From Macrostomum lignano (lineage: Eukaryota), in the NCBI GenBank assembly GCA_002269645.1, contig NIVC01000794.1, positions 104,008-168,007 of the forward strand: DNA of 64,000 bases, given 5' to 3'. Positions 2,263 through 23,847 of the stretch are shown piece after piece (the stretch's first letter is position 1; each line of letters begins with the position of its first letter). Position numbers and translations under genes: made by a program. The notes below the pieces were generated by a model that saw only the letters and a list, made by a program, of their open reading frames with translations, had not been told where the DNA came from and made no database searches.

Positions 2263-2991
2263 TACAGTAAATAAAGTATTACAGACCGAGAAGAACACGG
2301 AGGCCGTTTTCCAAGCAAATTCGTCAAAGCAAAGCAAGACATAAATCCTAAAATTTTGGTCTGTTGTCTAAAGGCTGGATTGATTTCATAAGGTGGTTCA
2401 ACCATTGATACAAAAGAGTTATTTTTAACTAGTGACGCGCGATGTTTATAAAACCAAAATCGTTGATGACGACTGACACTTGTCACTTGTCACTTGTCAT
2501 TTGTCGACTTGTCACTTGTAGCTTTTTATGGAATCGACCCCTGTTCGGAATCCAAGAGCTACCTGCGATCATACCATTGAATTAAGTAAGACTTAGCTTC
2601 TTTAATTGCTAGTTTATTTTCAGTGCAGCAAGCATAGCATATTGAAAACAGAACTAGTGCTAACCAGTTAGCACACCAGTTATCCAACCAACTGTTGCAT
2701 ATGAGCCGTGTAGATGTAATACGCTCGTATAATCTTTGTATGTTTTTCAGCGTCCTCGGCCTTTCTCTGCCATAGGAACCAAAAGAACAGACAGAGATCG
2801 TACTTAATCTACAGATATTGGAAGCGACTGGGAGTGGGAGTGAGGTATTCGTCAAAAGCGGGGATGTGGGGGCGCAGCCCCCAACATTTAGCCATAGACA
2901 TAAAAATTAAAGTAAAAGATTCGATGCTTAAATTAAAAGCGAGAAAGGAAAGGTTTGGGCAGCTAGAGAAAATCAGAGAGAACTGAGAATC

Positions 2992-4272
2992 ATGGAACAC
3001 GACTTGGAACTCGCTTTCGACTGGTTGAATGACATTGAATTGAGAGAAAACGAGGCTTCTAGATTTGCTTTACTGTCCGATAACGAGGTTGCTGAAAGGA
3101 TTTACGCTGCTGCGCCGGAATCGACACGCCGGAAGGAACGATGGGCACTAAAGCTATTTGACGACTGGTTTCAGGAGAGGCAAACCAAACTGCTTCATGG
3201 AGACGCCTGCGGTCTATCTGTGTTTAAGGAGCGTTCCGAATGGGGAAAATCGGATTGGAACTATTTACTAAAGACCTTCCTGTTCGAGGTTAGAAAAACT
3301 GACGGTACCAAGTATAACTCGAACAGTCTGAGAGATATGTTTAACATGTTGCAGCGATACGTACATTTTGGACTTGGCACTAACTGGAATCTATGGAAAG
3401 ATGATGATTTTCTGGGTGCTCGAAGAGCGCTTGATGCTGCGATGAAGGAGACGACCAAGGAGGGCAACGTTGCTGGAAAGTTTGCTTCTGACCCGATTCC
3501 GTTCGACATGGAAAAAGATCTATGGGTTAAGAAACTCCTTGGTACAGGCGATCCCAAGACTCTGGTGTATACGCTCGTGTTCTATATCGGAAAAAACTTC
3601 GCCATACGTGGTGGTACAGAGCTGCACAGTCTAAAGAGAGGCAAAGAGATTTGCTTGGAACTACACGATGGCCAGGAAATTTTGGTCTACAGAGAGGAGC
3701 GGAGCACGAAAACCAACAACGCTGGGATCAGAAGCAAGAATCGTCCTGTGAAGGTTTTCATGGCTTCGCACACCCCAGATCATGAGCGCTGCCTTCCGTG
3801 CATCTATAAAATCTACGACGGCTACCGACCGGAGCAATGTAAGCACGAGAACCTCTTTCTGACTTGGTTTCGAAGTGAGTCTGCCATTAAGAGCGGCAGA
3901 TGGTACCAGAATGAACCTATCGGCCGGCATACTCTCGACTCTATTGTGGCGAATATCACCAAGCCCGTGTCTACGGATGGTAAACTCTCAAACCAGTCTC
4001 TAAGGAAGACTTGTGCCAGCACGTTGCATCAGGCTGGACTGGCTAGGGACGATATAGCCCGCGTCACTGGACATTCGTCCAACGCAATTCAGACGTACAT
4101 ACGGCTAGACGTCCAGGACCATTCGCGTATGAGCTACGCTCTACACGCCGGAGGAGCCGTGGAGTCCAACGGGCGGACCAATGAGCAAGATGTCGTGTCT
4201 GAGGGTACTACCAAGAAGATGCGCATGACTGTCCACGGTGACACCAACACCGTAGAAATCATGTTCGAGTGA
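2992..4272 (+). CDS. YR1: Crypton-type (DUF3504-like) tyrosine recombinase, open reading frame intact
   Basis: 426-aa intronless ORF with FAIRGGTE (catalytic R), NQSLRKT (HxxR position with Q instead of H), VTGH and IQTY (nucleophile Y); flanked by CCATAGAC at 2892 and 4443. Confidence 0.85.
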   Translation: MEHDLELAFDWLNDIELRENEASRFALLSDNEVAERIYAAAPESTRRKERWALKLFDDWFQERQTKLLHGDACGLSVFKERSEWGKSDWNYLLKTFLFEVRKTDGTKYNSNSLRDMFNMLQRYVHFGLGTNWNLWKDDDFLGARRALDAAMKETTKEGNVAGKFASDPIPFDMEKDLWVKKLLGTGDPKTLVYTLVFYIGKNFAIRGGTELHSLKRGKEICLELHDGQEILVYREERSTKTNNAGIRSKNRPVKVFMASHTPDHERCLPCIYKIYDGYRPEQCKHENLFLTWFRSESAIKSGRWYQNEPIGRHTLDSIVANITKPVSTDGKLSNQSLRKTCASTLHQAGLARDDIARVTGHSSNAIQTYIRLDVQDHSRMSYALHAGGAVESNGRTNEQDVVSEGTTKKMRMTVHGDTNTVEIMFE

Positions 4273-4376
4273 ATCGGCAAGAATGAATCGGTCGTTACTG
4301 CTGTTGATAGTTTATACATCTAATGGACTAACTAACAAATTATAGTCGTTCTAAAATGTTCTCAGGCCTTGTTCTT

Positions 4377-4402
4377 AGGCCTGTTAACCGGTTAACAGGC
4401 CT
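4377..4402. repeat. Perfect 26-bp palindrome downstream of YR1
   Basis: AGGCCTGTTAACCGGTTAACAGGCCT is its own reverse complement. Confidence 0.95.
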
Positions 4403-4719
4403 CGTTTTGAGTTCTCAGGCTTCGTTTTTTAGTGAGGTTTGGCCATAGACTATCGTTCCACTAGAAAAGAAGGAATTTAGTGTGAACCGTCATATCTGTA
4501 GGTTAAGTATAAGTTCTTTCTGTTTCCGAACCGAGTTCTCAGCCAGGGGGTTGGACCAGAGAAGTGAAGAAAACGGAAAGAATATATTTCCCAATCGTTT
4601 GGTCGGTCCATATGAGCCGACTGTAGTACCGTGAGATGTCTATGGTCAAGACTGCTACTTAGTGGAATTTAAGACGAAAATTTAATTTTTCAAGCACATA
4701 CTTAAATCAATTGACAAGC

Positions 4720-5985
4720 ATGGAGACTTTCGATTTTGATCTCAGGATCGACTTTGAGCCCATTGACTTTGCGACAATCGAGGAAGTATTGGATGCTACG
4801 GGAGCGCATCCAAATTGTCCTTGTCGCTTCTTTGTCCAGCTATTTGCGGCCTTTCTTCTCAACAGTCGAAAAGGCTGATGGCTCTGCCTATAGCTGCAGT
4901 ACTCTCGTCTGCATGAGGGCCGCTATTCATCGGTTCATACTTGGTATTCGGCGCATGCCCATTATTGGTAACCCAGAGTTCGTTGATTTTGACAAGACGT
5001 TCAAGGCCGCTCTAACATTCTCTCTGAAACAACCAGTTTCTGTGGTTGATGGTGAGCGTGGATATCGCACAATTGAGAAGGACTACTTGGAGAAGCTTCA
5101 CGTCTATTTCGACAGGGCAAATCCAAAGATGCTTCAACAGGTGTTCTTTCTCATCGCTTTCCATTTTGGATTCAGAGGTCGAGAGTGGTTCCGATCTCTA
5201 AAAAAGGAGGACATCATCGTGAGGTACCGTGACGGAGAAGTGGGATGCATCGATCAAATAAAGGGTAAACATGAGAAGAATGTTTCAGCCAAGTGTGTCG
5301 ACACCAGAAAGGAGATCGGAATATTTCCAGTGAGTGATAAGGCCGTCTGTCCGGTCCAGGCAGTGCTACTTTACCTATGAAGCTGCCAGAGGAAAATTCA
5401 AGCCTCTTCCCAAAGCCACGAGCCAAGTGGAATGACGACGGTTGGTACTGCAAGAAGGAAGTCCTTGGCAAGAATAGCCTAGCTGAACTTATGAAAGTCA
5501 TCTCCACTGAGGCTGGCCTCTCGCGGCAGTATACCAACCATTATATCCGATCGACAACGGTCACCACTTTATGTGAACCAGGATTCCCGATGGAAAATAT
5601 TCCGGCTGTTTCCGGACACAAGAAGACAGAGAGCGTGGTTCGTTACACTAAGCGGATTTCCATTGATCATAAGCGTTCGCTCTCAACAGCAATGACTTCC
5701 AGCCTGCGTGGAATCGAAACGCATTTGGAAGTTATCCTGAAGAAGCGCGCCGCTATTGGACAGGTGACTGTTCCGTCTGTAATGCACTACCTCAGTGGTT
5801 CAGTCGACACCGTCTTCTGTTTTGAGCGACCATCAACGGGAGCCGACTATTGTGCTGGAGAGGAACGGGGCAAATTGCTCGATTTATCTGTAAGAATGGC
5901 GACGTCTCTTGTTAATCTGAAAGAACTGAACTTGACTCTATGTTTCATGTACTCTGTTCCATGTTTTTGTTTCCATAATCCATAG
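4720..5985 (+). pseudogene. YR2: Crypton-type tyrosine recombinase, frameshifted
   Basis: ATG at 4720; motifs FHFGFRGREW, TNHYIRST and VSGHKKTESVVRY lie in three frames (shifts near 4830 and 5377); AATAAA at 5987. Confidence 0.85.
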
Positions 5986-6067
5986 AAATAAAGACTTTCC
6001 GTGACAATATTTGCGTTCTCCGGGATTTTATTTGGTAATATTCAATAATATCCCGTAAAGTCTTTAT

Positions 6068-6366
6068 GTCTATGGTTTATACGAGATTACACATGCCTTT
6101 TTCGGGAGTTATTTTCATAAATCCCTCAAAAGGCATGTTTAATCTGATACATAAATAAATTGATGATTTTCCGAGCCGATAATTATATTAACTGCCCGGA
6201 ATTTGCGGGCAGTTATTGCAGTTTAAACCATAGACATATATGCTTCACTTATTTTGCATAAATTTGTGAAAGAAGAAACGAGAAGTATCAGATTAAACAT
6301 GCCTTTTGAGGGAGTTATTTGTATTTTTTTGTAGAAGGCATGTTTAATCTCGTATAAACCATAGAC
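6068..6366. mobile_element. MITE-like foldback unit bounded by GTCTATGG...CCATAGAC
   Basis: 6068-6150 pairs with about 6280-6366 (GTCTATGGTTTATACGAGATTA...CCCTCAAAAGGCATGTTTAATCTGATAC); central hairpin TAACTGCCCG/CGGGCAGTTA; no coding content. Confidence 0.75.
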
Positions 6367-6561
6367 TAGACTCCGGGATTATATCGGATAATATCCCGGA
6401 GTTGTAATATAATCCCGCAAAATACAAAAACAATTGTCTATGTCAAAATGCCAAGTGACTAAGAATCGGGGTCGAGGGGGTGCATAGCTCGCTGTGGGAG
6501 TGTTGGGGCGGAGCCCTCACATATAAGCAGCACTGAAAATAATTATCTATGGTCAAAACTG

Positions 6562-7506
6562 ATGTCTGTTTCTAAAAGGCCACGCGTCAGGAGACTGGGT
6601 CTGACTTTCATTTACCTGTTGAATTTGAGAGTATATCGAAAGGCTTTGCGATGCGGCGATCGACTTCTGAACCCACTCGTGGATTACTCTAGAGATTTTA
6701 TCGGCAACATCGAACCGAACATTCTACCGGCTGATTTCGTGGAGTCACGCGCTGGTGGAGATATTCGAGATCATGAGTGGCTGGCGGCTGAGATGGATAA
6801 ATATCAAGAAGATGTACAGCTACAAGACCTATACGGGATGGAGCTTTTGGAGGCCCCGTTAATCGAAAAGGACGGAGAAAATGGATCGATGGACGGCGGC
6901 ATGGAAGGTGTCAAACGTTTTGCTGTAGTCGACAGTTTTGCCGCTCTGAACAAGTCTGTCCGTCCGAAAGGCACCAACAATCGGAACAATTGGGCCCTGC
7001 GACTTTCCCAGGAATGGGTGAGCTCACGTGTCAGTGAGATAGGCACGAAACCCATCGTTGAGTTCAGCTGTGAGGAAATCAACACGATTTTTGGACGTTG
7101 CATCGACGAAGCGCGGAAGGTCAATGGTGAGCATTATCCTAGAGGGTCATTAGTATCGATAGCCGCAGGACTTAATGCGGTCATTTGAGAGGTCCAGCCG
7201 ACAGTAGATCTTTTTAAGTCGATGGAGCTACGGCCATTAAGAGACTCGTTAGACGCCGCGATGAAACTTTCAACTGCCTTCACTGGTACTTCACTGAACA
7301 CTAAGCCGGCTGGAATTCTCAGTGTTACTGACGAAGAGAAAATATGGCGATCAGGAGTTCTCGGCTTGGATAATCCGGACTGTTTGACCAAGACGCGCTT
7401 CTTTCTGAATGGGCTCCACTTCGCCCTACGTGGAGGTGAGGAGCATTCGAATCTGCTGTTTTCGCAGATAAGAATTGAAATTCGCGACAACGAAGAGTGT
7501 CTTGTT
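6562..7506 (+). pseudogene. YR3: DUF3504-type recombinase, 3'-truncated by an insertion
   Basis: Homologous to YR1 (NWALRL..EW, ARKVNGEHYP, LDAAMK, VLGLDNP, LHFALRGGEEH); stop at 7186-7188; similarity ends at the 8-bp TSD at 7499-7506. Confidence 0.8.
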
Positions 7507-8050
7507 CATGGATGAAGGAATAGAAAGGATCGCTCATCTGAAAACGAGTCTATGGCCAAAACCTACTAAAAATTGGGATATTCCCCCCCCCACGAATTTT
7601 ATTGGCTGCTGGAATTTAATATACCTTTTCAACTTCGGATTCGTCAAAAGTGAGTTCAAATTCGTCAGCGTATGCAAAACTATATGCCGCTCAAGGGGAA
7701 GAGAATGAGTGTCTAAGTCATTTTTAGAGAGTGACTTCGAATTCGTCTAAGTAAGTGAAATTCGTCAGTGCAAATACAGCCTGATCAGAAAGTGTTTGCT
7801 TTGTCCATGGTAAGAAAAGAAGATGTCTATGGTAAGTTTAAGTAAGAAAGTGAGTGAAGTTCGTCTGTGGAAAAGTAACCCAATTTCTTGAAATCTTCAT
7901 TTCATGCTTTGATTGTTGTCAGAGATGCCCTACATGACAACAAACAGCCAATGTAACGCACAAAGTCCCGTCAAGCCGACGACTGATTGCCTGCATTGTC
8001 ACAGCAGGAGCAGCAGGAAAATCTGCAACAAGCTTTTGCTGCATTTCTTA

Positions 8051-8419
8051 GGGGGCCGTAGCCCAGCGGTAGCGCAGCTGCTCTGGTGTGCCAGCGACCC
8101 AGGCTCGATTCCAAGTGCAGTCACATTAATTTGGGGCTGAATAGGAATCTCGGCTTGGCTCTGCTCGTGCGATTAACGGCCTTGAGAGCCAACCCCCCAA
8201 GGCGCAGTGAAGTGTGTGTACATGCCTAACGATAATATAAAGTTTGGGCCGCTGTACACTCCTGTGTGAGTGTGTGCCTGCGTACGTATCCGCGCGCTTG
8301 TATGCCTGCTCAGGGGAGTCGGCGGAATGGGCAGTAATGCCTCTCGCCGGTTGTGTGCCTATGTCGCTTAAAGTGCGCCAGGGTGCACACAACCCCCCTG
8401 CCTCTAATAAAAATAAAAT
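8051..8419 (+). mobile_element. tRNA-derived SINE inside the Tc1-like element
   Basis: GGGGCCGTAGCCCAGCGGTAG (A-box-like) and GGCTCGATTCC (B-box-like) head; ends in AATAAAAATAAAA. Confidence 0.6.
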
Positions 8420-8684
8420 GCTGCATTTCTTTGAGGGTCACAGTCGGCTTCTCTTCCACATACCTCGTCAACGCCCCGAGCATCTCCTCAGAAAACTTTA
8501 GTCTCACTGCACCTCCTCGCGCGTTAAGATCAATCCTACCCTCATCAACATATCTCCTGATGATGTCACTAGCAGTTGTCATCTTGATATCTAGTTCAAT
8601 TGCGAGTTGTCTCCAGTCTTGTCCTTGTTGAAAACATCGCACGAGTCTAGAGCGATCCACAGACGAAATTCTCATGTAGGGCAT
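8420..8684 (-). pseudogene. Tc1/IS630-type transposase N-terminal HTH fragment
   Basis: MPYMRISSVDRSRLVRCFQQGQDWRQLAIELDIKMTTASDIIRRYVDEGRIDLNARGGAVRLKF...PTVTLKEMQ is a paired-like HTH with the RGG linker; no DDE domain follows. Confidence 0.7.
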
Positions 8685-9639
8685 CTCTGACAACAATCAA
8701 AGCATGAAATGAAGATTTCAAGAAATTGGGTTACTTTTCCACAGACGAACTTCACTCACTTTCTTACTTAAACTTACCATAAAAATCTTCTTTTCTTACC
8801 ATGGATAAAGCAAACACTTTTTCTGATCAGGCTGTATTTGCACGGACGAATTTCACTTACTTAGACGAATTCGAAGTCACTTTCTCTAAAAATTTACCCT
8901 TGAGCGCTATATAGTTTTGCATACGTTGACGAATTTGAACTCACTTTTGACGAATCCGAAGTTGAAAAGGTATAATAGTCCCCCCCTAAGTTCTTACTGG
9001 CTGAAGCTTGTACGAGGGGGAAATTCCTAAGTCACGATTAGCATGCATACTATGTAGGCTGTAGTAGAATAAACATAGATAACCTTTTTTCTTGTTTTAA
9101 ACGCTAATTTCTTTCCCCTAAGCCGTCATGGCCCAGAGGAAGAAAGCAGTTAGAGATGTCTAGCCAACGTACATGCATCAAATAGCTCTGTTTTTGTTCT
9201 GTGTTAAGTTGTTTTCGTCTAAAGCTGGATAGCCAAGCGCTACTGCGCTGCTCAGAACAGCTCGTCTAAGATTGGTGACAGAAATGAGGACGGCAGCAAG
9301 GTTAGTTTTTTTTACTTTCCTATTAAGTCAAGCCAGCAGCTCTCCATTTGGCTATCGAGCATAAATACTAGTCCAAAGTTTACGCCAAGGCGAAATACTG
9401 AGCTGTGCGACGAATATTTTTCTCCAGACTCATGATCGTTGTTATCTCAAGGGAAAAAGAAAAAAACTTAACCCTGTCGCAATACCAGTGCAATACCCAG
9501 CTACGCCGCAGCTTCCAGCTTCAATCCCGCCTCAAGATGCTTTTTCCTCAAGTTCCTCACTTTTTTGCTAACTAGCCCCTCACTTCTTTAAAGTTCAATC
9601 GCTTTATGCTTAGTTGTCTTGTTTCTTAATTTTTGCAGT

Positions 9640-9947
9640 AATAATTTAATAATTGATTACACCTGCCCCAATTGGACCAGATGTGCAACCGACAGCTCAG
9701 TCGCAGCTATTCTGCGGCGCATCTGAAGGCTGCGTACGGCTGTTAAGTCTAAGGACTGATGGGGTCGCCACACACACCCTTAATTACCCCAGCTAATGCT
9801 GGCACCCATTTTACAGCTGGGTGAACTGAAGCAATGCAGAGTTAAGCGTCTTGCTCAAGGACACAAATTGTTCCAGTGGGATCGGGAATCGAAACCCCGA
9901 CCTTCAAGTCGTGAGTCCGACGCTCTGACCACTAGGCTACAACCCCC
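9640..9947 (-). mobile_element. tRNA-derived SINE with a CORE-like central domain
   Basis: Minus strand: GTAGCCTAGTGG (A box), GGTTTCGATTCCC (B box), then GTGTCCTTGAGCAAGACGCTTAAC...CAGCTGTAAAATGGG resembling the MIR/CORE consensus; short ATT-rich tail. Confidence 0.7.
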
Positions 9948-10639
9948 GTTAATTTTTGCAACAAATTGTTATTTGTTTCAATCACTGCATCCTTCAATTC
10001 CTCTACATAATCAGTCAAGTTTATACAAAATCAGTCTAAAATCAGTCTACTATATATACAAAAAATACAAACTGCTGGTCTATCAAGAGGCAAAATTTGT
10101 TTATCAGGCAAAAGAGCGCAAATGTAATGTCTGGCCATGTAACTTGTATGGCTTTAAAATAGTGCATTCTTTCCCTATGCGCGTTAATCCGTGACTTTGG
10201 AATTCCCCCCCCCCCGCGTACAAGCTTCAGCCAGTAAAAACTTAGGGGGGGGACTATTATTAAATTCCAGCAGCCAATAAAATTCATGGGGGGGGAATAT
10301 CCCAATTTTTAGTAGGTTTTGGCCATAGACTCGTTTTCAGATGAGCGATCCTTTCTATTCCTTCATCCATGGTCTTGTTATCGTAAGCTATCGTAAGATA
10401 TCGTAAGATAACAGCATAAGCTGTTATCGTTGCAATGATGGATTGACACTAACTATTGAGTGCTGTTAACGTCTATGCACTCGTGCGCTACGCATTGTAC
10501 GAACGCGAAATTATTCTCTCTCGTGGCCATAGACCCGTTATCTGCACGCTTTTCGGGTATCACCGATAGACATATATCTATATAACTTTTAAGAGCGTTT
10601 GAAGTTTAAGAAGAACCCAGAAATCACGCGATCTACAAC

Positions 10640-11453
10640 TTGACCATGGAGCTACCGACTAAGCTTGTCTACTATATAGACTACAAGAAACTGCCAGGAG
10701 AAGCCATTTCTGGAATGTCATCATCACAGATTGACATTCTCCTTCAACAGCAAACCGAGGAGCGGTTTATGGAAAAGCAAATGGACGAGCGTCTGGTCGA
10801 GCAACCGTCAAATGGAGATGGCGAGATTTTGTTGCTGCCCGAGGATATTGACCTGGATGACATGTTCGACTGCGTGCCCAGCGTTGAAGACCTCGAAAAA
10901 GCTATCAAAGACCTAGAAGTGTCGCGAGTAACAATACCAGACGACAGACGGATCAGTACGTCAAAAGGCTCTTGGCCTTCATGGAATCGAATCCACGAAC
11001 TCGAAGAAGAATTCAAACTGGTATTGCGCTTCGCAAGCGCTTGGTGTGAACACCCTAGCAACCATGATGACCCAGATATCGGAGGCTGCCAGTTTGAGTA
11101 AGCGCTACACGGCCCATTTTGTCCGTCCGACTGTCATCAAGGAGTTTTCTGATGCTGGTTACTCGAATGCCGATATCTGTAAAGTGGCTGGTCACAAACA
11201 GGTGAAAACAGTCGAACGGTACCTGCAATTCGGAAGTCGACACACATCCGAGATGCGGGCCATGTGCAGCGCACTGCATTCATCGCTGCATGGAGCTAAC
11301 TCATCCATGGGCGGCACAAATCGAATGGAGACGTCTATGCCAGCAGAGCGCGCTGTGGCCAACAGCGGCAACCATGCCGAGCTACGACAGGTCACCTTGA
11401 CACTCAACTTTCATGGAAACGTGAGTGGGTGCACCTTTAATTCGCCAAAATGA
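10640..11453 (+). pseudogene. YR4: internally deleted relative of YR6
   Basis: N-terminal part similar to YR6 (frameshifted), joined to ISEAASLSKRYTAHFVRPT...VAGHKQVKTVERYLQFGSR...SGCTF; the central region with the first catalytic Arg (RGRE) is missing. Confidence 0.85.
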
Positions 11454-11716
11454 CGGTACCTTTTTTACATCTACTTTAAAATGGACAATACTGCAAAAGT
11501 GACACAGGCCTCTCATACAGTTCTTTGCAGTACTGTTGTTTCGTTAAATTGTTACTTAAAATATACACACACGCCGACAAACCATGTTAAAGTTTAGCCA
11601 TCTAGACATAAATTATCTGCACGCTTTTTTATTATCAGCACGCTTTTTGTATAGATTGCCTATAGGATTTTACCATAGACATAGGCATTATCTGCACGCT
11701 TGAGCGTTGCACAATG

Positions 11717-12048
11717 GTAGATTAAGTCTATGGTTTCAGACTTGGATAATGATCACAGTATTACCAATTATATTTGGTAATACTAAAAAGCGTTAATCAA
11801 TTATATTAATTAAGTAATTACCAATTAACCATTAACCATTAACTGTATTCTAAAAAATTGTCTATGGTCCGATTACGAAGACACTGTAGCGTTACTTAAT
11901 GGCGTGGCTTAATGGCGTTACATAATGATCAACCGAAAACGCTAGTCTATATGATAATGCGATTATGTCTATGGTTCAGAATTAAATAATGATCAACCAC
12001 TTGTGACTGTGATCATTATCCAAGTCTGAAACCATAGACTTAATCTAC
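11717..12048. mobile_element. Second foldback unit built on the GTCTATGG/CCATAGAC site
   Basis: GTAGATTAAGTCTATGGTTTCAGACTTGGATAATGATCACAGT at 11717 is the reverse complement of about 12006-12048; two more GTCTATGG copies lie inside (11860, 11967). Confidence 0.75.
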
Positions 12049-12206
12049 TAGTGTCTTCGTACCATAGATATTGGCTCGGCAGTGAGCAGGGTCAAGGGAC
12101 CATAGAAAATTTTTAAGAATACAGTTCTCTAAAAGAAAAGCTCTACCATGAAGTCTGTTAGGAAGTTAAGAAATAGAAGCAAGAAGCGAGAGAAATCGAA
12201 TTAAAA

Positions 12207-12780
12207 ATGCCTCTTATCAACTGGAAAAATCTACCGGTCGACAGTTTAGACGGCATCTCGTCTACTGAACTAGATTTCTGAGTGAACTGAGCGCCGTGAA
12301 CCACAGTTCCGATGAAATTCTTGGAGATTTTATCGACTAACTGTCTAAAATCGAGACGGCTGATGAGGCCGCTGCGGTTTCTAGTGTCGAGCTTCCAGAA
12401 CTATCTGATTTACCCAGTGCGATGGATGTTGTCGAACTGGAATCACTGCCGAGCACTACACGAGAACACATGTTTCTGTATGGCAAAATGTTCGTGGAGT
12501 TTTTAAAGAAGGATGGTGCTGTGGATGTGAGCTGTTCGACGTTATCTCGCACGCAAGCGTGACAGAACCCTCAGGAAGGTTGCTACCGCTGTTAGTGACA
12601 ATTTGGCCCCACCAACCGAGGCGACTACGAGTGCAACCACTAGTGCAACAGTCACGCAGCAAGCTCAAGTTGACATGCAAAGTGTGCAACAGCCGATGTT
12701 TGCCAACTGCCTCTTCGATGGGTGCACGTTCAAGCTTTGCTATATCCTTGATCTGTTTCCTGTTAAAGTTCTTGTTGCTT
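12207..12780 (+). pseudogene. YR5: heavily deleted YR remnant (N-terminus plus C-terminal tail only)
   Basis: MPLINWKNLPVDSLDGISSTELD aligns with YR4 YYIDYKKLPGEAISGMSSSQID; DLPSAMDVVELESLPSTTREHMFLYGKMFVEFLK aligns with the YR6 N-terminus; tail MFANCLFDGCTF resembles the YR4/YR6 GCTF tail; no catalytic motifs; AATAAA at 12786. Confidence 0.65.
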
Positions 12781-13162
12781 AAATTAATAAAAACAGTGAA
12801 TTTCTCGCTCATAATCTATGGCAATTTATCGTGACTTAACAGCTTCATTAAAAAATGCATTAAAAAACGATAGTCTATATGATAATGTAAGATTACTACT
12901 AGGCTAACTCATGCGATAATAGTCTTGGCTCGAGTGCGCGAAGCGCACGAGTGCCATAGACTATTATCGCACTCGAAAGTATATCGGGCATTTTGTCCCA
13001 TGACTGAGCGTGCGTTGAAAAAATTCTTCGTCACAGCACTGTACTTTATTATCTGCACGCTTTTTGTTCCTGCAGCTAGGAGTTCCTACCATAGACATTT
13101 TCTTAGTGACCATAGACAATTTCTTGCTATGCACAAGCTTCTGATCGTGAGTTTGGCCCCAT

Positions 13163-14626
13163 ATGGATTCATTATTTCCTAACGGCATGAGAAGCGGCAT
13201 GACGGCCGGTAAGATCTCCCACCATTTGGAGTGGGCCGACGTTGAGAAGCTTGTGGACGAGCAGTTACGTCTCCAAGCAACTAGTGTGAACGACAACGAG
13301 GAGCTGAGCCGCCTATTCGACTCCATCCCTGATTTGAACGACGACTTGGCCTCGATCGACCTTGACGCATCAATCCGGGCGCTGGAGCAAGAGACCGATG
13401 TAAAATCGTCTAAGAAGCATGAGGCTCAATACGTCGCGAAATTTCGCGATTTCTTGGCCAAGTATCCGCACCTGCGCGTCGATTTGGACACCTCGCAACC
13501 TGAGGAGCTGAGCGTTGGCCTACGCTACTTTTACGGCACTCTTCGCAAGACTGATGACCAGCCGTATGCTCCTAGCAGCCTCGTGTGCATTCGCGCTGCC
13601 TTGTTCCGCTACCTGATGAAGAACCGGGGCATCAACATCATTTCCGATGGTCGGTTCTACTCTGCAAATCAAATGCTGAAGGCCGGTGGGCGTCTTTTCT
13701 TTGCCCGCGGTGGCCGCGTGGACCACTTCCAGGCCATGGAGCCATCGGACCTACAGAAACTGGGTGACTACTTCGAACGGAGCACTCACACTCGCCTTCT
13801 GCATGAGACGTACTACAACGTCGTCTTCTACTTCGGCACCCGTGGTCGAGAGTGGTTGAGGGATTTGCGGGTGGACAGCTTCGAGTTCGACAAGGCCCCC
13901 GACGGTCGCGAGATCGTTCGCCTTCGAGAGAAGCGGGTGAAGAATGTCGCCAGGGACTTGGGCCGTGCCGCTAGCGACAATGTCAAGGAGGCTGTGATGA
14001 CTGTGTCTCCTGTAAAGTGCCCGGTCGAGTGCCTCCGACTTTACCTCCTGAAGAGAAGTGCGTCAATTCCTAGCTCTTCATCTTGTGGCGAAAAGGCGTC
14101 CGATGACGTGGAGTTCTTCCTGAAGCCGAAGGTTAGTGGTTTCGAGAAGGGGATGTGGTTTTCGCCCAAGCAGCCTATTGGCGTTAATGGCTTTGCCGAG
14201 CTCTTCCCACGCATTTGCGAGGCAGCCAGCTTGAGCCGGCGCTACACTGCGCACTGCGTTCGGTCCACCATCATCAAGGAGCTCTCCGTGGCCGGCCATT
14301 CAGTATCCGACATTTGCAAGGTCACGGGGCACAAGGCCACGGCCTCTGTCGAGCGGTACCTTCGATTCGGGTCACGCCGCGTTGGCGAGATGCAGGACAT
14401 GTGCTCGTCGTTGAACACGGCGATGCACGCGAACCAGGTGGCCTGCGTCGATAAGGAGGTTTCGGCGCTTCTGTGCAAGGTCCCGCGACGGGCCGTGGCG
14501 AATACGGACGATCCTGTTGCTCGTGTGATCGCGGAGCCCCCAACCACCAATACTACTGGGCCTGTACCGCAGGTTGTATTTAATTTCAGTGGTCCCGTCA
14601 CCGGCTGCACGTTTGGACGCATCTAA
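13163..14626 (+). CDS. YR6: intact Crypton-type tyrosine recombinase
   Basis: 487-aa intronless ORF with a full catalytic set: FGTRGREW (R), TAHCVRST (HxxR), VTGH, VERY (Y); AATAAA at 14723; GCCATAGACT direct repeats at 12953 and 14867. Confidence 0.9.
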   Translation: MDSLFPNGMRSGMTAGKISHHLEWADVEKLVDEQLRLQATSVNDNEELSRLFDSIPDLNDDLASIDLDASIRALEQETDVKSSKKHEAQYVAKFRDFLAKYPHLRVDLDTSQPEELSVGLRYFYGTLRKTDDQPYAPSSLVCIRAALFRYLMKNRGINIISDGRFYSANQMLKAGGRLFFARGGRVDHFQAMEPSDLQKLGDYFERSTHTRLLHETYYNVVFYFGTRGREWLRDLRVDSFEFDKAPDGREIVRLREKRVKNVARDLGRAASDNVKEAVMTVSPVKCPVECLRLYLLKRSASIPSSSSCGEKASDDVEFFLKPKVSGFEKGMWFSPKQPIGVNGFAELFPRICEAASLSRRYTAHCVRSTIIKELSVAGHSVSDICKVTGHKATASVERYLRFGSRRVGEMQDMCSSLNTAMHANQVACVDKEVSALLCKVPRRAVANTDDPVARVIAEPPTTNTTGPVPQVVFNFSGPVTGCTFGRI

Positions 14627-14768
14627 GATCTTCGTCGACCTTTCTGCTGTCATCTGTTTTACTGCTGACTTTTTGTTTCTGTGCATCGGTGTTAAATTCT
14701 GCTGTGTTTTCCCCCTTTTTTTAATAAACGTTGCTTGCAAACTGCTGTTTTTTGTGGTGCTGTACGCT

Positions 14769-14845
14769 ATTATCTGCACGCTTTTTCATTATCTGCACGC
14801 TTTTTCATTATCTGCACGCTTTTTTCATTATCTGCACGCTTTTTT
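14769..14845 (+). repeat. Four tandem copies of ATTATCTGCACGCTTTT(T)C
   Basis: Direct reading; the same motif occurs at 10538, 11612, 11631, 11687, 13048 and 14882 (two of these are variants). Confidence 0.9.
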
Positions 14846-15759
14846 GGCTACGCCGCATAGGGTTGGGCCATAGACTGTAATATTAATGCACGCTTTTTGG
14901 ACCAAAAACGCACGCTCAGTCATGGGACAATAAGTATTATTCTACTTTTGTTCTGACGATAACTGTGCTCACCAGTTACATATTGTTACCGTTCAAGTTT
15001 TATCATATTGAATGTTTAATGACTATGGGCACAACCAACTGACAACGAAGATATAAACAGACAAATATAATCCCTGAAAACACATAGATTATTGTGTCCT
15101 ATACCATCCTGCATCTCTGAATATACTACCGGAAGGCATAAAATCTATGGTTTATAAGAGATAACGTTTATTAGTAAATAAGTATTAACATTAGACTTAG
15201 ATGATAAGGGGAGACAACTTTCGTCGTAGACAATACTGTAATGAGCGAGAATATTCTAGAAGGGAAACAACTAATGATAGAACTTATAGAACAGTTGGAG
15301 CATTCGCTCAGTTTTTTCACAGGGCCTAATGGCTGAAACTTGGGGAATTAAACGAAACCAGAAATAATTCGCTCTGGAAAGCAACTTTGTCGTAGGTTTT
15401 GTTGTAGGACACTTACTCGCACCGACCATACTAAAATTGAGGTGTTAGCACGAATTCAAATTAATAAGTAAGTCTATAGAATGCGGGAGGTCAGACTTGA
15501 ATGACGAAGCTCAAAATTGTTACTTAGACTTGCCTGTTTGATTTTCTATCAATTGCTCTATACTAGTAATAACTGACACGTCATTTCTGTGCACAGATGA
15601 TTTCTGTATTTGGTTACGCAAAGCCTGTGCACACACCATAGAAACATAAAACAGTTGGCTCCGTCACGAATGACTGAATCATAGCACACTTATGATGTCG
15701 ATTTTTTAAAGTTTCCTGCAACCAAACTTTGCTTAAGTAGTGAATTACTAAAACAAAAA

Positions 15760-16627: not shown

Positions 16628-17015
16628 GGGGGTGTTGCATAGAATCGACAAATCGAAGTTTACAAGTGACAAGTTGACAAATTACAAGTAAACCGTGAAG
16701 TCCGTTGCATAGACGCTTTACAAACGACAAGCATCTGACAAGTGACAAGTGACAAGTTACAAGTTACAAGTCCCGTTACAAGTGGTTTGTTGCATAGAAT
16801 GTATAACTTGACAAGTTTTTCTGCTATTCGCGAGTGACAAGTTGCGTAGTAAATTCTGACCCCGCGAGCTTACTTAAAACTTACAAGCTGTCAAAGTCTT
16901 TGGCCCAAGTTTGACTGACTCAGCGTTATGTTCTATGACGAGTCGTCCGATGAGGATTCCGACGCATCTGCGCCCGGCAATAAACGACCGCGTACATTCA
17001 AGGACAGGATCATGA
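16628..17015 (+). mobile_element. 5' end fragment of a second Harbinger-like element
   Basis: Preceded by CAG (CWG); GGGGGTGTTGCATAGAA start, ACAAGT(G/T) subterminal repeats like the 825-2540 element, then MFYDESSDEDSD...RPRTFKDR resembling a Harbinger transposase N-terminus; no 3' end found. Confidence 0.6.
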
Positions 17016-19997: not shown

Positions 19998-22900
19998 TTA
20001 CTGCAGCTTCAGGGTCACCCGGTGCAGCTCGGGCAGCAGGCGGACTCCGGGCACGGAGAAGATGGACGCCGCTGACGAGGTTGAAAATGAGAGACAGAAA
20101 CATTGTTTCTCTTGTGAGATGAATTTGAGATCTGATAAAGTTTTTTGCTGCGGATTTTTTGCACGCACTGGCAAAAGCGTGTCTGCGTACTTTTGTCACA
20201 GTAGTGCAGAGGCACAAGCGTGTCTGTGTACTTTTGTCACAGTAGTGCAGAGGCACAAGCGTGTCTGTGTACTTTTGTCACAGTAGTGCAGAGGCACAAG
20301 CGTGTCTGCGTACTTTTGTCACAGTAGTGCAGAGGCACAAGCGTGTCTGCGTACTTTTGTCACAGTAGTGCAGAGGCACAAGCGTGTCTGTGTACTTTTG
20401 TCACAGTAGTGCAGAGGCACAAGCGTGTCTGCGTACTTTTGTCACAGTAGTGCAGAGGCACAGGCGTGTCTGTGTACTTTTGTCACAGTAGTGCAGAGGC
20501 ACAAGCGCAAGCTTTAGCTGGTACAAGAGCACGGGAAAAACTGCTAAGCTCTGGCAAAAGCGAGAAATTTTGCATGTTTCCTTCCCCTCAGACTCGTCAT
20601 CATGCTGTGCTCAGTCAGTCTCAGCCTGCCTGTCTCCTTCCCCTCAGACTCCATCATGCTGTGCTCAGTCAGTCTCAGCCCGCCTGTAACTATGTAACAC
20701 CTCTAACTATGCACCTCTGTCATTGTGCACCTCTGTCACTGCGCACCTCTGTCACTGCGCACCTCTGTCACTATGCATGTTATTGTGCACCTCTGTCACT
20801 GCGCACCTCTGTCACTGCGCACCTCTGTCACTGCGCACCTCTGTCACTATGCATGTCATTGTGCACCTCTGTCACTGCCGCAACTCTGTCACTATGCACC
20901 TCAGCCGCTACTTAAAAATGTACTGCAAAACAATGAGCTCCCGTCTCGGCAATGTCCTTTTCAGAAAATTCTAGCCTTCAATTAAACTTTCTTTAACTTT
21001 GAAGTGCTTATTGACTACCAGCGGTCCTTGTCGCGATGAAATCAAGAGAGCAGTGCCCAGTGCTCACCGGGGTCCAGGCACACCAGCTCTGCCGGCAGGC
21101 TATGAAAGAAGGCGTGTCGAAGCGCGGCCGCCGCCGTCAGCCGCCTCTGCGGCCGCAGCTGCAGGCAGGCCAGCGCCAGGGCCTCGGCATGCGCCACGGA
21201 TTGAAGCCGCGGTGCCGACTGCCGCAGGCGGTGGGCCACCCGGGCGTCCGGGGCGGACTGCTCCGGCCGGCCCGTTACCTGAGTATCAGGGGTCAAGTCC
21301 GGTTAAGACAAGTCCAAGTACTTTCTCTCTTAGGTCCAAGTTCTAATCAATGAGACCAAAGTCAGGCCGGGTCAGGCCGGGTCAGGCCGGGTCAGGCCGG
21401 GTCAGGCCGGGTCAGGCCGGGTCAGGCCGGGTCAGGCCGGGTCAGGCCGGGTCAGGCCGGGTCAGGCCGGGTCAGGCCGGGTCAGGCCGGGTCAGGCCGG
21501 GTCAGGCCGAGTCAGGCCGGGTCAGGCCGGGTCAGGCCGGGTCAGGCCATACAACCAGCCTCCGTCATCGCAGCGCCTCACCCTGAAGATCTCCTCCAGC
21601 TGGTCCTCAGCGCTGTGCGCCCCCGGGAACAGAGCGGCCCCGGACAGCATTTCGGCGTGGATGCAGCCGACGGCCCACATGTCCAGCGAGGCGGAGTATC
21701 GAGTGCCACCCAGCAGCACCTCGGGCGGACGATACCACAGCGTGACGATCTCGGAGCTGTAGCTGCGGCTCGGCACCGTCTGAGCCCTGGCCAGGCCGAA
21801 GTCGGCCAGCTTGAGCTCCCCGATAGCCGAGATGAGGAGATTTTGCGGCTTCAAATCCCGGTGCAGTATGCGCCTGCGGTGGCAGAACTCGAGGCCTCGG
21901 AGCAGTTGGAATAAAAATAGCTGGGCAGGAGGTCATCAGATTTTGGAGATTGATTTGGATTTAGATGTGTCAAATAGATGCAGTATATCACTAGATGGTT
22001 CAATAGATGCAGCAGGTCCCTGGGTGTGTCTATAGATGCAGCAGGTCCCTGGGTGTTTCTATAGATGCAGCAGGTCCCTGGGTGTGTCTATAGATGCAGC
22101 AGGTCCCTGGGTGTTTCTATCGATGCAGCAGGTCCCTGGGTGTGTCTATAGATGCAGCAGGTCCCTGGGTGTGTCTATAGATGCAGCAGGTCCCTGGGTG
22201 TGTCTATAGATGCAGCAGGTCCCTGGGTGTGTCTATAGATGCAGCAGGTCCCTGGGTGTGTCTATAGATGCAGCAGGTCCCTGGGTGTGTCTATAGATGC
22301 AGTAGGTCCCTGGGTGTGTCTATAGATGCAGCAGGTCCCTGGGTGTGTCTATAGATGCAGCAGGTCCCTGGGTGTGTCTATAGATGCAGCAGGTCCCTGG
22401 GTGTGTCTATAGATGCAGTAGGTCCCTGGGTGTGTCTATAGATGCAGTAGGTCCCTGGGTGTGTCTATAGATGCAGCAGGTCCCTGGGTGTGTCTATAGA
22501 TGCAGTAGGTCCCTGGGTGTGTCTATAGATGCAGCAGGTCCCTGGGTGTGTCTATAGATGCAGTAGGTCCCTGGGTGTGTCTATAGATGCAGCAGGTCCC
22601 TGGGTGTGTCTATAGATGCAGCAGGTCCCTGGGTGTGTCTATAGATGCAGCAGGTCCCTGGGTGTGTCTATAGATGCAGCAGGTCCCTGGGTGTGTCTAT
22701 AGATGCAGTAGGTCCCTGGGTGTGTCTATGGATGCAGTAGGTCCCTGGGTGTGTCTATAGATGCAGTAGGTCCCTAATACGAGTAGCTGTGTCGCTAGCT
22801 TGGATTATACAGACACTAGATCAGTCCTATGTCTATTTTTGTCTATTATAAAATGATAGTACAGTTAGGCCGTACCTTTGCGTTGTGGGCCCTGAGCCCT

Positions 22901-23847
22901 CCGGAGTGCTTCTCCAGGTATTTGCTGAGGTCCTGCGGCTGCATTCGTACAGTCGGGGTTGTGTTGTGTTGCTGCTTGCATTAATTTGAGATCGTCAACA
23001 GGGCAATAAAGTTATTAAACCCACTCACCACGTATTCGAACACGAAGGTCAAATTCATCTCCGTGTGTATGATGTCGTGCAGTGTGACTATGTTTGCGTG
23101 CTTTAAGCCTTTCAGCAGGGAGGCTGGAATAAAAAAAATCCCCATAGTTACTGAGACACTACTTGAGGCAGGCTCTAGCAAGTAGCAAATGCGGCGCGTT
23201 TTGCCTATTTTTTCTCACCTTCCCTGATGGCAGTGAACGGAGCGCCCTCCTCGCGTTGCAGTCGAATGTCTTTCAGAGCCACTATTGAGTTGTTCACTCT
23301 TGAATGCAGATGGGAGTGCAGATTACAATTATCGCTAACACATTACAAAGCTCCCGAGTTCGAGTCGGCGGCGCGGCCACTCTTGGATGGGGAATCATAC
23401 AAGAGAGGTCAAGGGGTCATCTGCCCCATCCCGTGGAAATAAGGGGAGGGTCACGTTTCCTGGAAAATCCACGCCTGCGGCGCTAAAATGGAGCTAAAAT
23501 ATTATGGTCAGTGGGGCTCGTGCCGCCCCAGTCACCAGCCAAGGCAAAGCTTTCAGCGGGCACCCACCGAGACACGCCTTTAAAGACGGTGGCGTAGCTG
23601 CCCTCGCCAAGCACCTCCAGCCGCTGGTACGAGTCCGACCTGCCGAATCCGCAGCACTCGCCGCCTCCGCAGTCAAGGGCGGACCTGGGTCGGCGGACGG
23701 CCGCAGTCTTCTGCTTCTGCGCGGCGGCATTGCTGCCTGAGGCAGCCTCGGGTGATGCCGGCTGAATGGTGACAGCTGACGCAGCTGCGGCTGCCACGCT
23801 GCCGGCTGAGCGGTGCCGGCGGAGCGGCTGGCCGAGGCGGGCGAAAG
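19998..23847 (-). CDS. CDK14: PFTAIRE cyclin-dependent kinase (CDK14/15, Eip63E-like), seven exons
   Basis: GT-AG, phase-consistent exons: 23847-23568 ([21 protein letters not shown]), 23298-23219 ([21 protein letters not shown]), 23123-23029 ([15 protein letters not shown]), 22938-22876, 21920-21582 ([25 protein letters not shown]), 21278-21068, 20071-19998 ([13 protein letters not shown]...TAA). Confidence 0.92.
20177..20504. repeat. 41-bp minisatellite, 8 copies (CDK14 last intron)
   Basis: Unit GCGTGTCTG(C/T)GTACTTTTGTCACAGTAGTGCAGAGGCACAA. Confidence 0.95.
20712..20895. repeat. About 16-bp GCACCTCTGTCACT repeat
   Basis: Direct reading. Confidence 0.85.
21360..21548. repeat. 10-bp (GTCAGGCCGG)n, about 19 copies, intronic
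   Basis: Direct reading. Confidence 0.95.
22002..22775. repeat. 29-bp minisatellite, about 26 copies, intronic
   Basis: Unit TAGATGCAG(C/T)AGGTCCCTGGGTGTGTCTA. Confidence 0.95.

Follow-up and report, generated by a model that had tools for sequence, protein, structure and literature searches.

One stretch of the Macrostomum lignano genome poses, in concrete form, the question of how animal Cryptons move. The window analysed here, 64,000 nucleotides of contig NIVC01000794.1 (assembly GCA_002269645.1, positions 104,008 to 168,007 of the forward strand), holds six tyrosine recombinase (YR) genes and two recurring words, an 8-mer (motif A) and a 16-mer (motif B), both taken from an earlier sequence-only reading of this DNA. 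What do these words do? We favor, with a probability of about 0.55, the view that together they form a docking site, loading the recombinase onto an element end predicted to recombine as a folded single strand.

On the evidence of their sequence, YR4, YR5 and YR6 are CryptonA (DUF3504) transposons, arranged head to tail as follows.

10434..11715, + strand: YR4 Crypton element, internally deleted, with AAT at both ends; copies elsewhere end at the same places
10434..10496, + strand: YR4 left hairpin, shortened (copy L078 has 104 nt), with the inner inverted triplet at its end
10527..10552, + strand: YR4 left A+B composite, spacer 2
10640..11453, + strand: YR4 recombinase gene, two remnants
11600..11646, + strand: damaged A, then two B copies (A-N4-B in 7 of 8 YR4 copies)
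11673..11702, + strand: A-N6-B composite, 40 nt inside the YR4 right end
11713..11715, + strand: AAT common to the YR4 right end and YR5 left end, very probably the crossover triplet
11713..12886, + strand: YR5 Crypton element, internally deleted, left end rearranged; A present, B array absent
12884..12886, + strand: AAT common to the YR5 right end and YR6 left end
12884..12994, + strand: YR6 left hairpin, GAA loop, one A in the 3' arm (3' arm and inner triplet damaged in this copy)
12995..13016, - strand: inner inverted copy of the YR6 right end
13048..13063, + strand: YR6 left B, single copy, followed by A at 13089 and 13110
13163..14626, + strand: YR6 gene, a 487-aa DUF3504-type tyrosine recombinase
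14769..14842, + strand: four tandem B copies downstream of YR6 (2-17 in other copies)
14868..14896, + strand: A-N6-B composite, 61 nt inside the YR6 right end
14907..14931, + strand: YR6 right end with terminal AAT; 22 nt complementary to 12995-13016

The 2048-nt YR6 element contains a single open reading frame, that of the YR, and neither a reverse transcriptase nor a DDE gene. Such a content, one DUF3504-type YR gene with its catalytic residues and no other gene, is that of CryptonA in the sections of Kojima and Jurka 2011 (PMC3212892) drawn on here, as are the absence of a true target-site duplication and the occurrence of non-autonomous deletion derivatives, represented in our material by many internally deleted copies that keep both ends. 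The same sections state that no terminal repeats were found in animal Cryptons; the elements described here do carry a 3-bp repeat in direct orientation, and besides it a hairpin of 105-130 nt, a copy of the right end that lies inverted near the left end, direct repeats in the subterminal region and the spaced composite.

The YR6 protein has R227, K260, H364, R367, H390 and Y399, and across 127 sequences the R-H-R-Y tetrad among these (R227, H364, R367, Y399) is nearly invariant and K260 invariant. YR6 matches Pfam DUF3504 at E 8.5e-6, below the cut-off, and YR1 at E 2.5e-19. The structure model of YR6 is Cre-like (pLDDT 86; Foldseek E 1e-9, the best folds being Cre) and closer to Cre than to IntI, with residues 1-77 modelled as helical and bearing 17 acidic against 6 basic residues. 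Lambda integrase uses arm-type sites together with host bending proteins, and the sites considered below resemble these in their phased spacing at a remove from the crossover and in the possible involvement of a host factor. In contrast to lambda, a separate N-terminal arm-binding domain is not evident in the YR6 model, whose N-terminal pLDDT is only 57-83. Because the model is Cre-like, with an acidic and helical N-terminus, the label 'arm-type' in the lambda sense, which the sequence-only reading had given to B, is unsupported.

Motif B occurs ten times in the window, always on the + strand (10537, 11612, 11631, 11687, 13048, 14769, 14788, 14807, 14827 and 14882), in agreement with the ten same-facing copies reported earlier. 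Its 14-letter core is found 8 times against 0.0003 expected, and its last 10 letters, with one mismatch allowed, 15 times against 4.8 in shuffles, a count that 0 of 100 shuffles reached. Exact A is present in 24 copies, 21 of them in the first 17 kb, on both strands; only 0.3 would be expected in those 17 kb, and the copies surround all six YR genes. Within the window B is found around YR4 and YR6 only, and YR1 and YR5 have A without a B array. The proposed restriction to one YR subfamily holds for the exact 16-mer; A is not special to YR4 and YR6. The two words are joined across a spacer of exactly 6 bases (A-N6-B) at 11673 and 14868, downstream of both YR4 and YR6 just as had been noticed. 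The same composite had also been placed at the upstream sites 10538 and 13048, where it is not found: the spacer at 10527 is 2, and the nearest A upstream of the B at 13048 lies 86 bases away, at 12954. At the YR4 left end, a spacer of 4 bases occurs in 4 of the 8 distinct left ends listed.

The spacing is kept in other YR6 and YR4 copies and also, with unrelated spacers, in other families. Exact B has 200 matches in the genome (control 0), and among the matches listed each of 20 clusters outside the window is matched by BLAST to the YR6 or YR4 element. The 6-base spacing is kept in 19 of 21 distinct YR6 right ends and 7 of 8 YR4 right ends; within YR6, where 18 of 21 spacers carry the identical six letters, this is conservation by descent. 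A relaxed composite occurs 714 times with a spacer of 6, tandem arrays included, against 50 times with a spacer of 7 and 38 with a spacer of 5, and 47 of the former and 35 of the latter fall in tandem arrays (three arrays each). Among the matches listed, the spacer-6 form comprises at least 19 different spacers on at least 48 contigs (control 0). In the fetched loci, the B core lies 18-21 nt downstream of A in 17 of 181 distinct A contexts, compared with a mean of 2 and a maximum of 5 for other windows. B itself, once called subfamily-specific, deserves that name only as the exact 16-mer; B variants still come after A in families whose proteins are as little as 37% identical.

The distance from A to the crossover also appears constrained. 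It measures 40, 40, 59, 61, 61, 68, 70, 70, 70 and 71 nt in ten families, and a Rayleigh phase test at periods of 10-10.5, leaving out two families in which A is reversed (54 and 70 nt), gives p values of 2e-5 to 4e-4, or 0.02-0.03 for the six unique values. Both the relaxed pattern and the 18-21 window were set once the families had been seen, and this post hoc choice, the tandem arrays within the 714 and the kinship of the families make the p-values optimistic; a fixed helical phase of sites away from the core was thus found among related families and post hoc. Loci chosen by motif alone gave A distances of 70 (a new family with 4 copies) and of 59 and 79 (single copies). Among 20 loci chosen by the composite alone, 6 are its tandem repeats without a YR gene and 3 are unexplained. 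B-like copies are restricted to element ends, with 0-1 in the interior of 8 elements; in 5 of 12 families one precedes AAT by 13-14 nt, and in 3 of 8 the half-site next to the left AAT is such a copy, the YR6 half-sites not being B-like. The composite, lying 40-70 bases in from the right ends of CryptonA elements, is a conserved site, and the claim that B is coupled to A at fixed spacing, as a repeated subterminal site, has been borne out. It probably serves as an accessory docking site.

The crossover itself can be placed, with near certainty, at the triplet AAT. Right flanks start with AAT in 18 of 21 YR6 insertions (3 have AGT; the inner site of L033 is excluded), 23 of 23 YR5 insertions and 6 of 8 YR4 insertions, and AAT precedes the left end in 17 of 18 cases for YR6 and 17 of 21 for YR5. 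For all three insertions tested, empty homologues carry a single AAT (8 empty sites of 9 candidates), and A is absent from the junction in all 8; L113 stopped short of the junction and yielded no empty site. AAT is thus present at both element ends and once at empty sites, 3 bp as against the 4-6 bp reported for CryptonA. A had been put forward as the shared crossover core, but it lies inside the element in all copies, with flanks that diverge 61 or 40 bases farther on, at AAT; since copies and empty sites place the crossover there, A is not the core. Where the two triplets differ (L044, L066, L048 and L077, by eye), AAT is at the left junction and AGT or AAC at the right. Element and target have only 3-4 bases in common, and no right flank contains the element's own spacer, except for one same-type neighbour in tandem. 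The ATTA score of the target flank at +5 is 111, against 73.7 +/- 6.5 (maximum 88), drawn from 61 of 67 flanks; insertions are scattered. CryptonF-1 of Chlamydomonas, in the sections of PMC9977147 used here, similarly pairs a short terminal motif with a near-identical target and rises in copy number; it differs in its 5-bp target, and those sections do not describe a hairpin or accessory sites.

The very termini are without an inverted repeat, but about 110 nt in from the left end the right-end sequence recurs in inverted form. All 8 families examined have a left-end inverted copy of the joined ends, forming a hairpin of 104-113 nt in seven families and 131 in one, with fold z of -9 to -17. 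What is conserved is shape and not sequence, with the crossover triplet within the stem in 8 of 8 families: stems are 0.87 identical within families and 0.36-0.40 between them (1 of 40320 permutations). On the strand with which the element starts, 2 extra bases follow AAT (3 in one family), making a fixed bulge. Isolated 2x2 mismatches in 7 families are GA/GA in 11 of 18 cases and never TC/TC (A.G 28, C.T 3); the YR4 copy, without a callable loop, was omitted from this strand-bias count, and the GA/GA pairs are in part descent from one ancestral motif. The computed top- and bottom-strand fold energies differ by only 0-5 kcal/mol. Among 15 YR6 left ends listed, 8 are shortened to 60-90 nt and 3 have the hairpin interior flipped. 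L037 and L039 have the same 5'-arm loss at two different loci, which suggests that an arm-deleted copy could still move. The only flanked relative from another organism, L181, has tandem YR genes and no strong hairpin, and exact A is absent by eye; a metagenome scan yielded 2 loci only, one without flanks.

These features recall integrons. In the sections of PMC5027507 and PMC4792948 drawn on here, attC and attI sites likewise recombine within a conserved triplet, AAC where the present elements have AAT; they also share a hairpin conserved in shape with an unpaired central region, and the formation of arrays, and attI1 has two direct repeats upstream of the core, like B upstream of AAT. The elements here differ from integrons in each having its own recombinase and scattered targets, and their use of a single strand is something we infer.

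The mechanism that we favor would run as follows. The recombinase itself would bind B, as IntI probably does the direct repeats of attI1, and A, common to all families, would be bound by a shared and probably host-encoded factor, kept on a single face of the helix with respect to the crossover. One element strand would fold, with the inner inverted copy pairing to both the right end and the beginning of the left end, and the recombinase would cut on the 5' side of AAT and swap a single strand with a target that reads T/C-AAT, then four bases, then a weak ATTA. Replication would resolve the junction, raising copy number and making targets of existing ends; from these two consequences head-to-tail arrays would follow. 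The 3-4-bp homology and the one-sided inheritance of triplets fit a single exchange resolved by replication. Single-strand recombination is known from integrons and CTX phage, and we lean toward folded single-strand exchange here.

A bolder and rather doubtful extension would make animal CryptonA elements self-mobile integron cassettes, with an attC-like left fold, an attI-like right end bearing accessory repeats, and a host protein that reads A. Different families would then stack and swap parts at the universal AAT, and the A-bound host protein would dock the recombinase at fixed spacing, an arrangement ancestral to QRICH1 docking. QRICH1, a domesticated Crypton protein, docks on DNA-bound zinc fingers.

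In the published Crypton model (PMC3212892 and PMC9977147, in the sections drawn on), a double-stranded circle recombines through two strand exchanges at a short core; on this view the composite would be accessory and the hairpin a cruciform, an invertible segment or a by-product. A circle has been detected for Starships, according to the portion of 10.64898/2026.09.21.753150 consulted, and the flipped hairpin interiors and the arm-deleted copies at two loci are in keeping with such a route. That said, the element-target homology falls short of an overlap of 6-8 bp, right flanks show no carried-over coupling sequence, and in a duplex neither the fixed bulge next to AAT nor the bias of GA/GA to one strand would have a role. 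A circle junction or same-family head-to-tail dimer has 0 matches in the assembly, and none was seen among the joints listed from Logan contigs of 4 runs, a result made uninformative by the loss of rare forms from contigs. We consider the duplex circle unlikely to be the route taken here.

It is more unlikely that the composite consists of two binding sites for host transcription factors, serving expression or silencing of the element, with no role in recombination. In several families the composite does also lie just 5' of the gene, and it has been multiplied into gene-less tandem arrays; the core of B would fit the metal-response consensus. Yet it is mostly 3' of the gene, is retained in non-autonomous copies and keeps a distance of 40, ~60 or ~70 nt from the crossover, and the B half-sites next to AAT in 3 of 8 families also argue against this role.

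In a DIRS-like scheme, the inner inverted copy would act as a splint that rejoins or rebuilds the ends of a linear single-stranded intermediate, and a duplex circle would integrate. The layout here is that of DIRS-1, where, in the sections of PMC7192593 used, an essential internal copy (the ICR) is complementary to both outer ends and junctions are trinucleotides. However, the elements here have no reverse transcriptase and no long terminal repeats, their copy adjoins the left end and is asymmetric, and the ICR is described in those sections as exactly complementary, in contrast to the conserved 2-base asymmetry found here; we regard this scheme as improbable.

Finally, the idea that A is a shared crossover core with B as a subfamily-specific arm-type site beside it is almost surely wrong, for although A surrounds all the YR genes, tied to B at fixed spacing, and CryptonS termini are mostly TATGG in the sections of PMC3212892 drawn on, the complement of the start of A, in 20 of the 21 right ends of YR6 A is internal to the element (deleted in the remaining one), flanks diverge at AAT, and the 8 empty sites have a single AAT and lack A at the junction.

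In the literature searched, no match to the intact word of motif A came up. To our knowledge, the pasting of a folded single strand into a three-letter target has not yet been demonstrated for animal transposons. Hairpins, subterminal composites and arrays were not found in the CryptonA papers listed by that search; such ends may be described in Repbase, in Goodwin 2003 or in the list of elements and termini that supplements PMC3212892. The locus offers an intact recombinase, exact ends, a target rule, a spaced accessory site and a hairpin covarying across eight families, and with these in hand the mechanism is directly testable. If single-strand recombination proves true, a reaction of integrons and CTX phage would extend to animals, and it would bear on the origin of the ZMYM, QRICH1 and KCTD1 regulators.

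Genome-wide counts, which cover a 764-Mb genome with the window at G000:C794:104008-168007, give 200 exact matches to B, the 15-16-base motif of the composite, seen for instance at 14769-14784, and the usual layout is one copy on the left and several on the right, 0.5-1.7 kb apart. Copies of YR6 are alike between two AAT triplets, at 12884 and 14929 in the window, beyond which their sequences diverge. AAT opens the right flank in 18 of 21 YR6, 23 of 23 YR5 and 6 of 8 YR4 insertions, and a single AAT lies between both flanks in the empty homologues of all three insertions tested (8 of 9 candidates). The AATs at 11713 and 12884 are joints common to YR4/YR5 and YR5/YR6. Since copy ends, empty sites and abutting elements all meet at AAT, the composite A-N6-B, 40 bases (YR4) and 61 bases (YR6) from the crossover, is internal to the element, and the 8-mer A, one copy of which spans 14868-14875, is not the crossover core that the sequence-only reading had made of it. 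YR1 has an AAG-type core.

These tyrosine recombinase (YR) elements belong to the CryptonA transposons; YR4 and YR5 have suffered deletions and represent two families distinct from that of YR6. Among UniRef proteins, one with 97% identity carries the label Macrostomum lignano. Further elements are stacked upstream.

2700-7550: YR1-YR3, three more Crypton elements
13163-14626: YR6 gene

YR6 retains R227, K260, H364, R367, H390 and Y399. Its profile matches (DUF3504, QRICH1, phage-integrase) are weak, and its structure model (pLDDT 86, 127-sequence alignment) is closest to Cre (E 1e-9), followed by integron integrase and QRICH1. Residues 1-77 are acidic and helical in this predicted model. The lambda arm-binding domain is unlike such an N-terminus, which argues against the earlier view of B as an arm-type site. 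Kojima and Jurka (PMC3212892) saw no terminal repeats in animal Cryptons, and a 2026 paper (PMC13465315) likewise describes Cryptons as without inverted repeats and with direct repeats of 4-6 bp. Eulor5/6 are human Crypton remnants (PMC5753468), and PMC4455052 supplies a classification table. A literature search, with Repbase and supplements outside its scope, found no paper on the features described here.

All ten B copies claimed within the window are present on the + strand, and the composites claimed at the YR4 and YR6 ends stand at 11673 and 14868, both far above chance. The two upstream cases do not have this form: the spacer at 10527 is 2 bases, and the 86 bases that precede 13048 are free of A. 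Other YR6 copies keep the six-base spacer in 19 of 21 right ends, a constancy that reflects descent, because 18 right ends have identical spacer letters. Five families named by ORF length (F484, F412, F516, F392 and F152) also have A and a B variant, separated by six bases of unrelated sequence; judged by those letters, shared descent does not explain the spacing across families. A relaxed pattern, composed after inspection of the families, matches 714 times genome-wide with spacer 6, 50 times with spacer 7 and 38 times with spacer 5; the latter two sets lie mostly in three tandem arrays each, and arrays are also among the 714.

The right-end A precedes the crossover by 40, 40, 59, 61, 61, 68, 70, 70, 70 and 71 bases in ten families. 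A Rayleigh test of these distances, which excludes two families with reversed A, places them on one helical face (p 2e-5 to 4e-4; 0.02-0.03 for unique values). Of twenty loci chosen by the composite only, four form a new non-autonomous family of 0.4 kb at distance 70, two are single copies (59 and 79), three are F516 or F516-like elements, two are remnants of other YR families, six are composite tandem repeats and three have no explanation. The tandem repeats are 41-46-bp arrays (L186, L187, L194, L195, L198, L201); others lie at G000:C1186:33778-35199 and C993:36132-36700, and none has a YR gene in the fetched stretches. In most YR6 copies the composite spacer and B start (14876-14885) repeat the first ten left-end bases (12887-12895), a repeat not seen in other families.

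The joined ends have an inverted copy 104-113 bases inside the left end (131 in YR1) in all eight families examined, and ends joined in silico fold into a single long hairpin (z -9 to -17). Stem match is 0.87 within families versus 0.36-0.40 between them (1 of 40320 permutations). Beyond AAT, the element-starting strand has two bases more than its partner, three in F516 and weakly in YR1; by eye, the new 0.4-kb family has the same 7-versus-5 layout. Across seven families, isolated 2x2 mismatches are GA/GA in 11 of 18 cases and never TC/TC, and A.G outnumbers C.T by 28 to 3, all on the GNA-loop strand. Flipped hairpin interiors, and one copy with both arms of the 7-base type, occur among L044, L049, L066 and L054; other hairpins hold foreign DNA or repeated segments (L031, L046, L052, L058, L062, L069; window 11757-11870), and L046 and L062 carry the same changes on both stem arms. 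The left end of this YR5 copy (11875-12050) has the opposite orientation to that of most others. At L171:3060-3170 a right end is attached to another family's hairpin, read from the inner triplet, which makes it either the other strand or an isomer that has been flipped.

In targets AAT is preceded by T or C, and a weak ATTA occupies +5 to +8 (score 111 versus 73.7 +/- 6.5); together they form a pseudo-palindrome of spacing 4, intermediate to the values for the folded strands, 5 and 3. Four insertions have unequal triplets, AAT at the left junction and AGT or AAC at the right, which places exchange at the triplet's 5' side. Another family's left end forms the right flank in 6 of 67 distinct flanks, a sample biased toward arrays. 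These facts fit a one-strand exchange like that of attC. The composite would load the recombination complex onto the right end, the recombinase would pair a folded single-stranded site with a duplex target over 3-4 bases of homology and exchange one strand, and replication would resolve the product. Folded strand, single exchange and replication would all be shared with attC, whose crossover lies in AAC (PMC5027507). Against this putative mechanism stand shortened left hairpins in 8 of 15 YR6 copies, identical arm loss at two loci, and computed energies that differ little between the two strands. Another organism's metagenome contig (L181:1-2600) also counts against it: its two related YR genes lie in tandem, separated by a stretch with a weak 15-bp inverted repeat, and it lacks a strong hairpin. 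A classical duplex circle is unlikely, and a transcriptional role of the composite more doubtful still. A DIRS-like splint is improbable, even though the essential internal complement of both ends in DIRS-1 (an excerpt of PMC7192593) is common to DIRS-1 and these elements.

YR1 is an intact element with abundant copies (640 candidates), and array order varies between loci, since YR3 directly follows YR1 at L126. Insertions nested in one another break up YR3 (7507-10371); among them is a remnant of a Tc1-like HTH sequence with long inverted repeats (8310-8696), and 7507-7621 recurs inverted at 10258-10371. A degenerate Harbinger-type DDE gene (857-2527) has repeated subterminal motifs, with similar motifs after the array (16660-16770); CDK (PFTAIRE-like) kinase-like exons with intronic tandem repeats were seen by eye on the - strand at 21600-23300. 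In a homologous array on C3526, additional insertions (L051:944-1301 and 2677-3950) occupy the left composite of YR4 and the YR5 left end, and L197 holds an F516 pair head to head in inverted orientation.

The first 17 kb of the window contain 21 copies of A, on both strands and near all six YR genes. Because A extends even to YR1, where B is absent and identity is about 25%, a common factor acting on A is the simpler reading of its putative binder. Host docking at A is a speculative idea prompted by QRICH1, a zinc-finger coregulator according to part of PMC13538652 and the title of PDB 9hjt. B-like copies occur only at element ends. In 5 of 12 families one of them precedes AAT by 13-14 bases, and in 3 of 8 B forms the half-site beside the left AAT. 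This pattern suggests that the recombinase itself prefers B and that the additional copies are accessory sites, comparable to the pair of direct repeats found upstream of the core in attI1 (PMC4792948). The supposed subfamily specificity of B survives for the exact 16-mer, common to YR4 and YR6 and absent from F484, but not for its variants, which follow A elsewhere. YR4 and YR6 proteins are 45% identical, F484 is 45-50% identical to both, and YR4 and YR6 are not sisters in the tree. One locus is a chimera whose left hairpin has a YR6 arm up to the loop and a YR4 arm from there on, followed by the YR4 body (L076:1540-1660), and another is a tandem with the YR6 left end attached to the YR4 right end (L072); together they suggest exchange between families.
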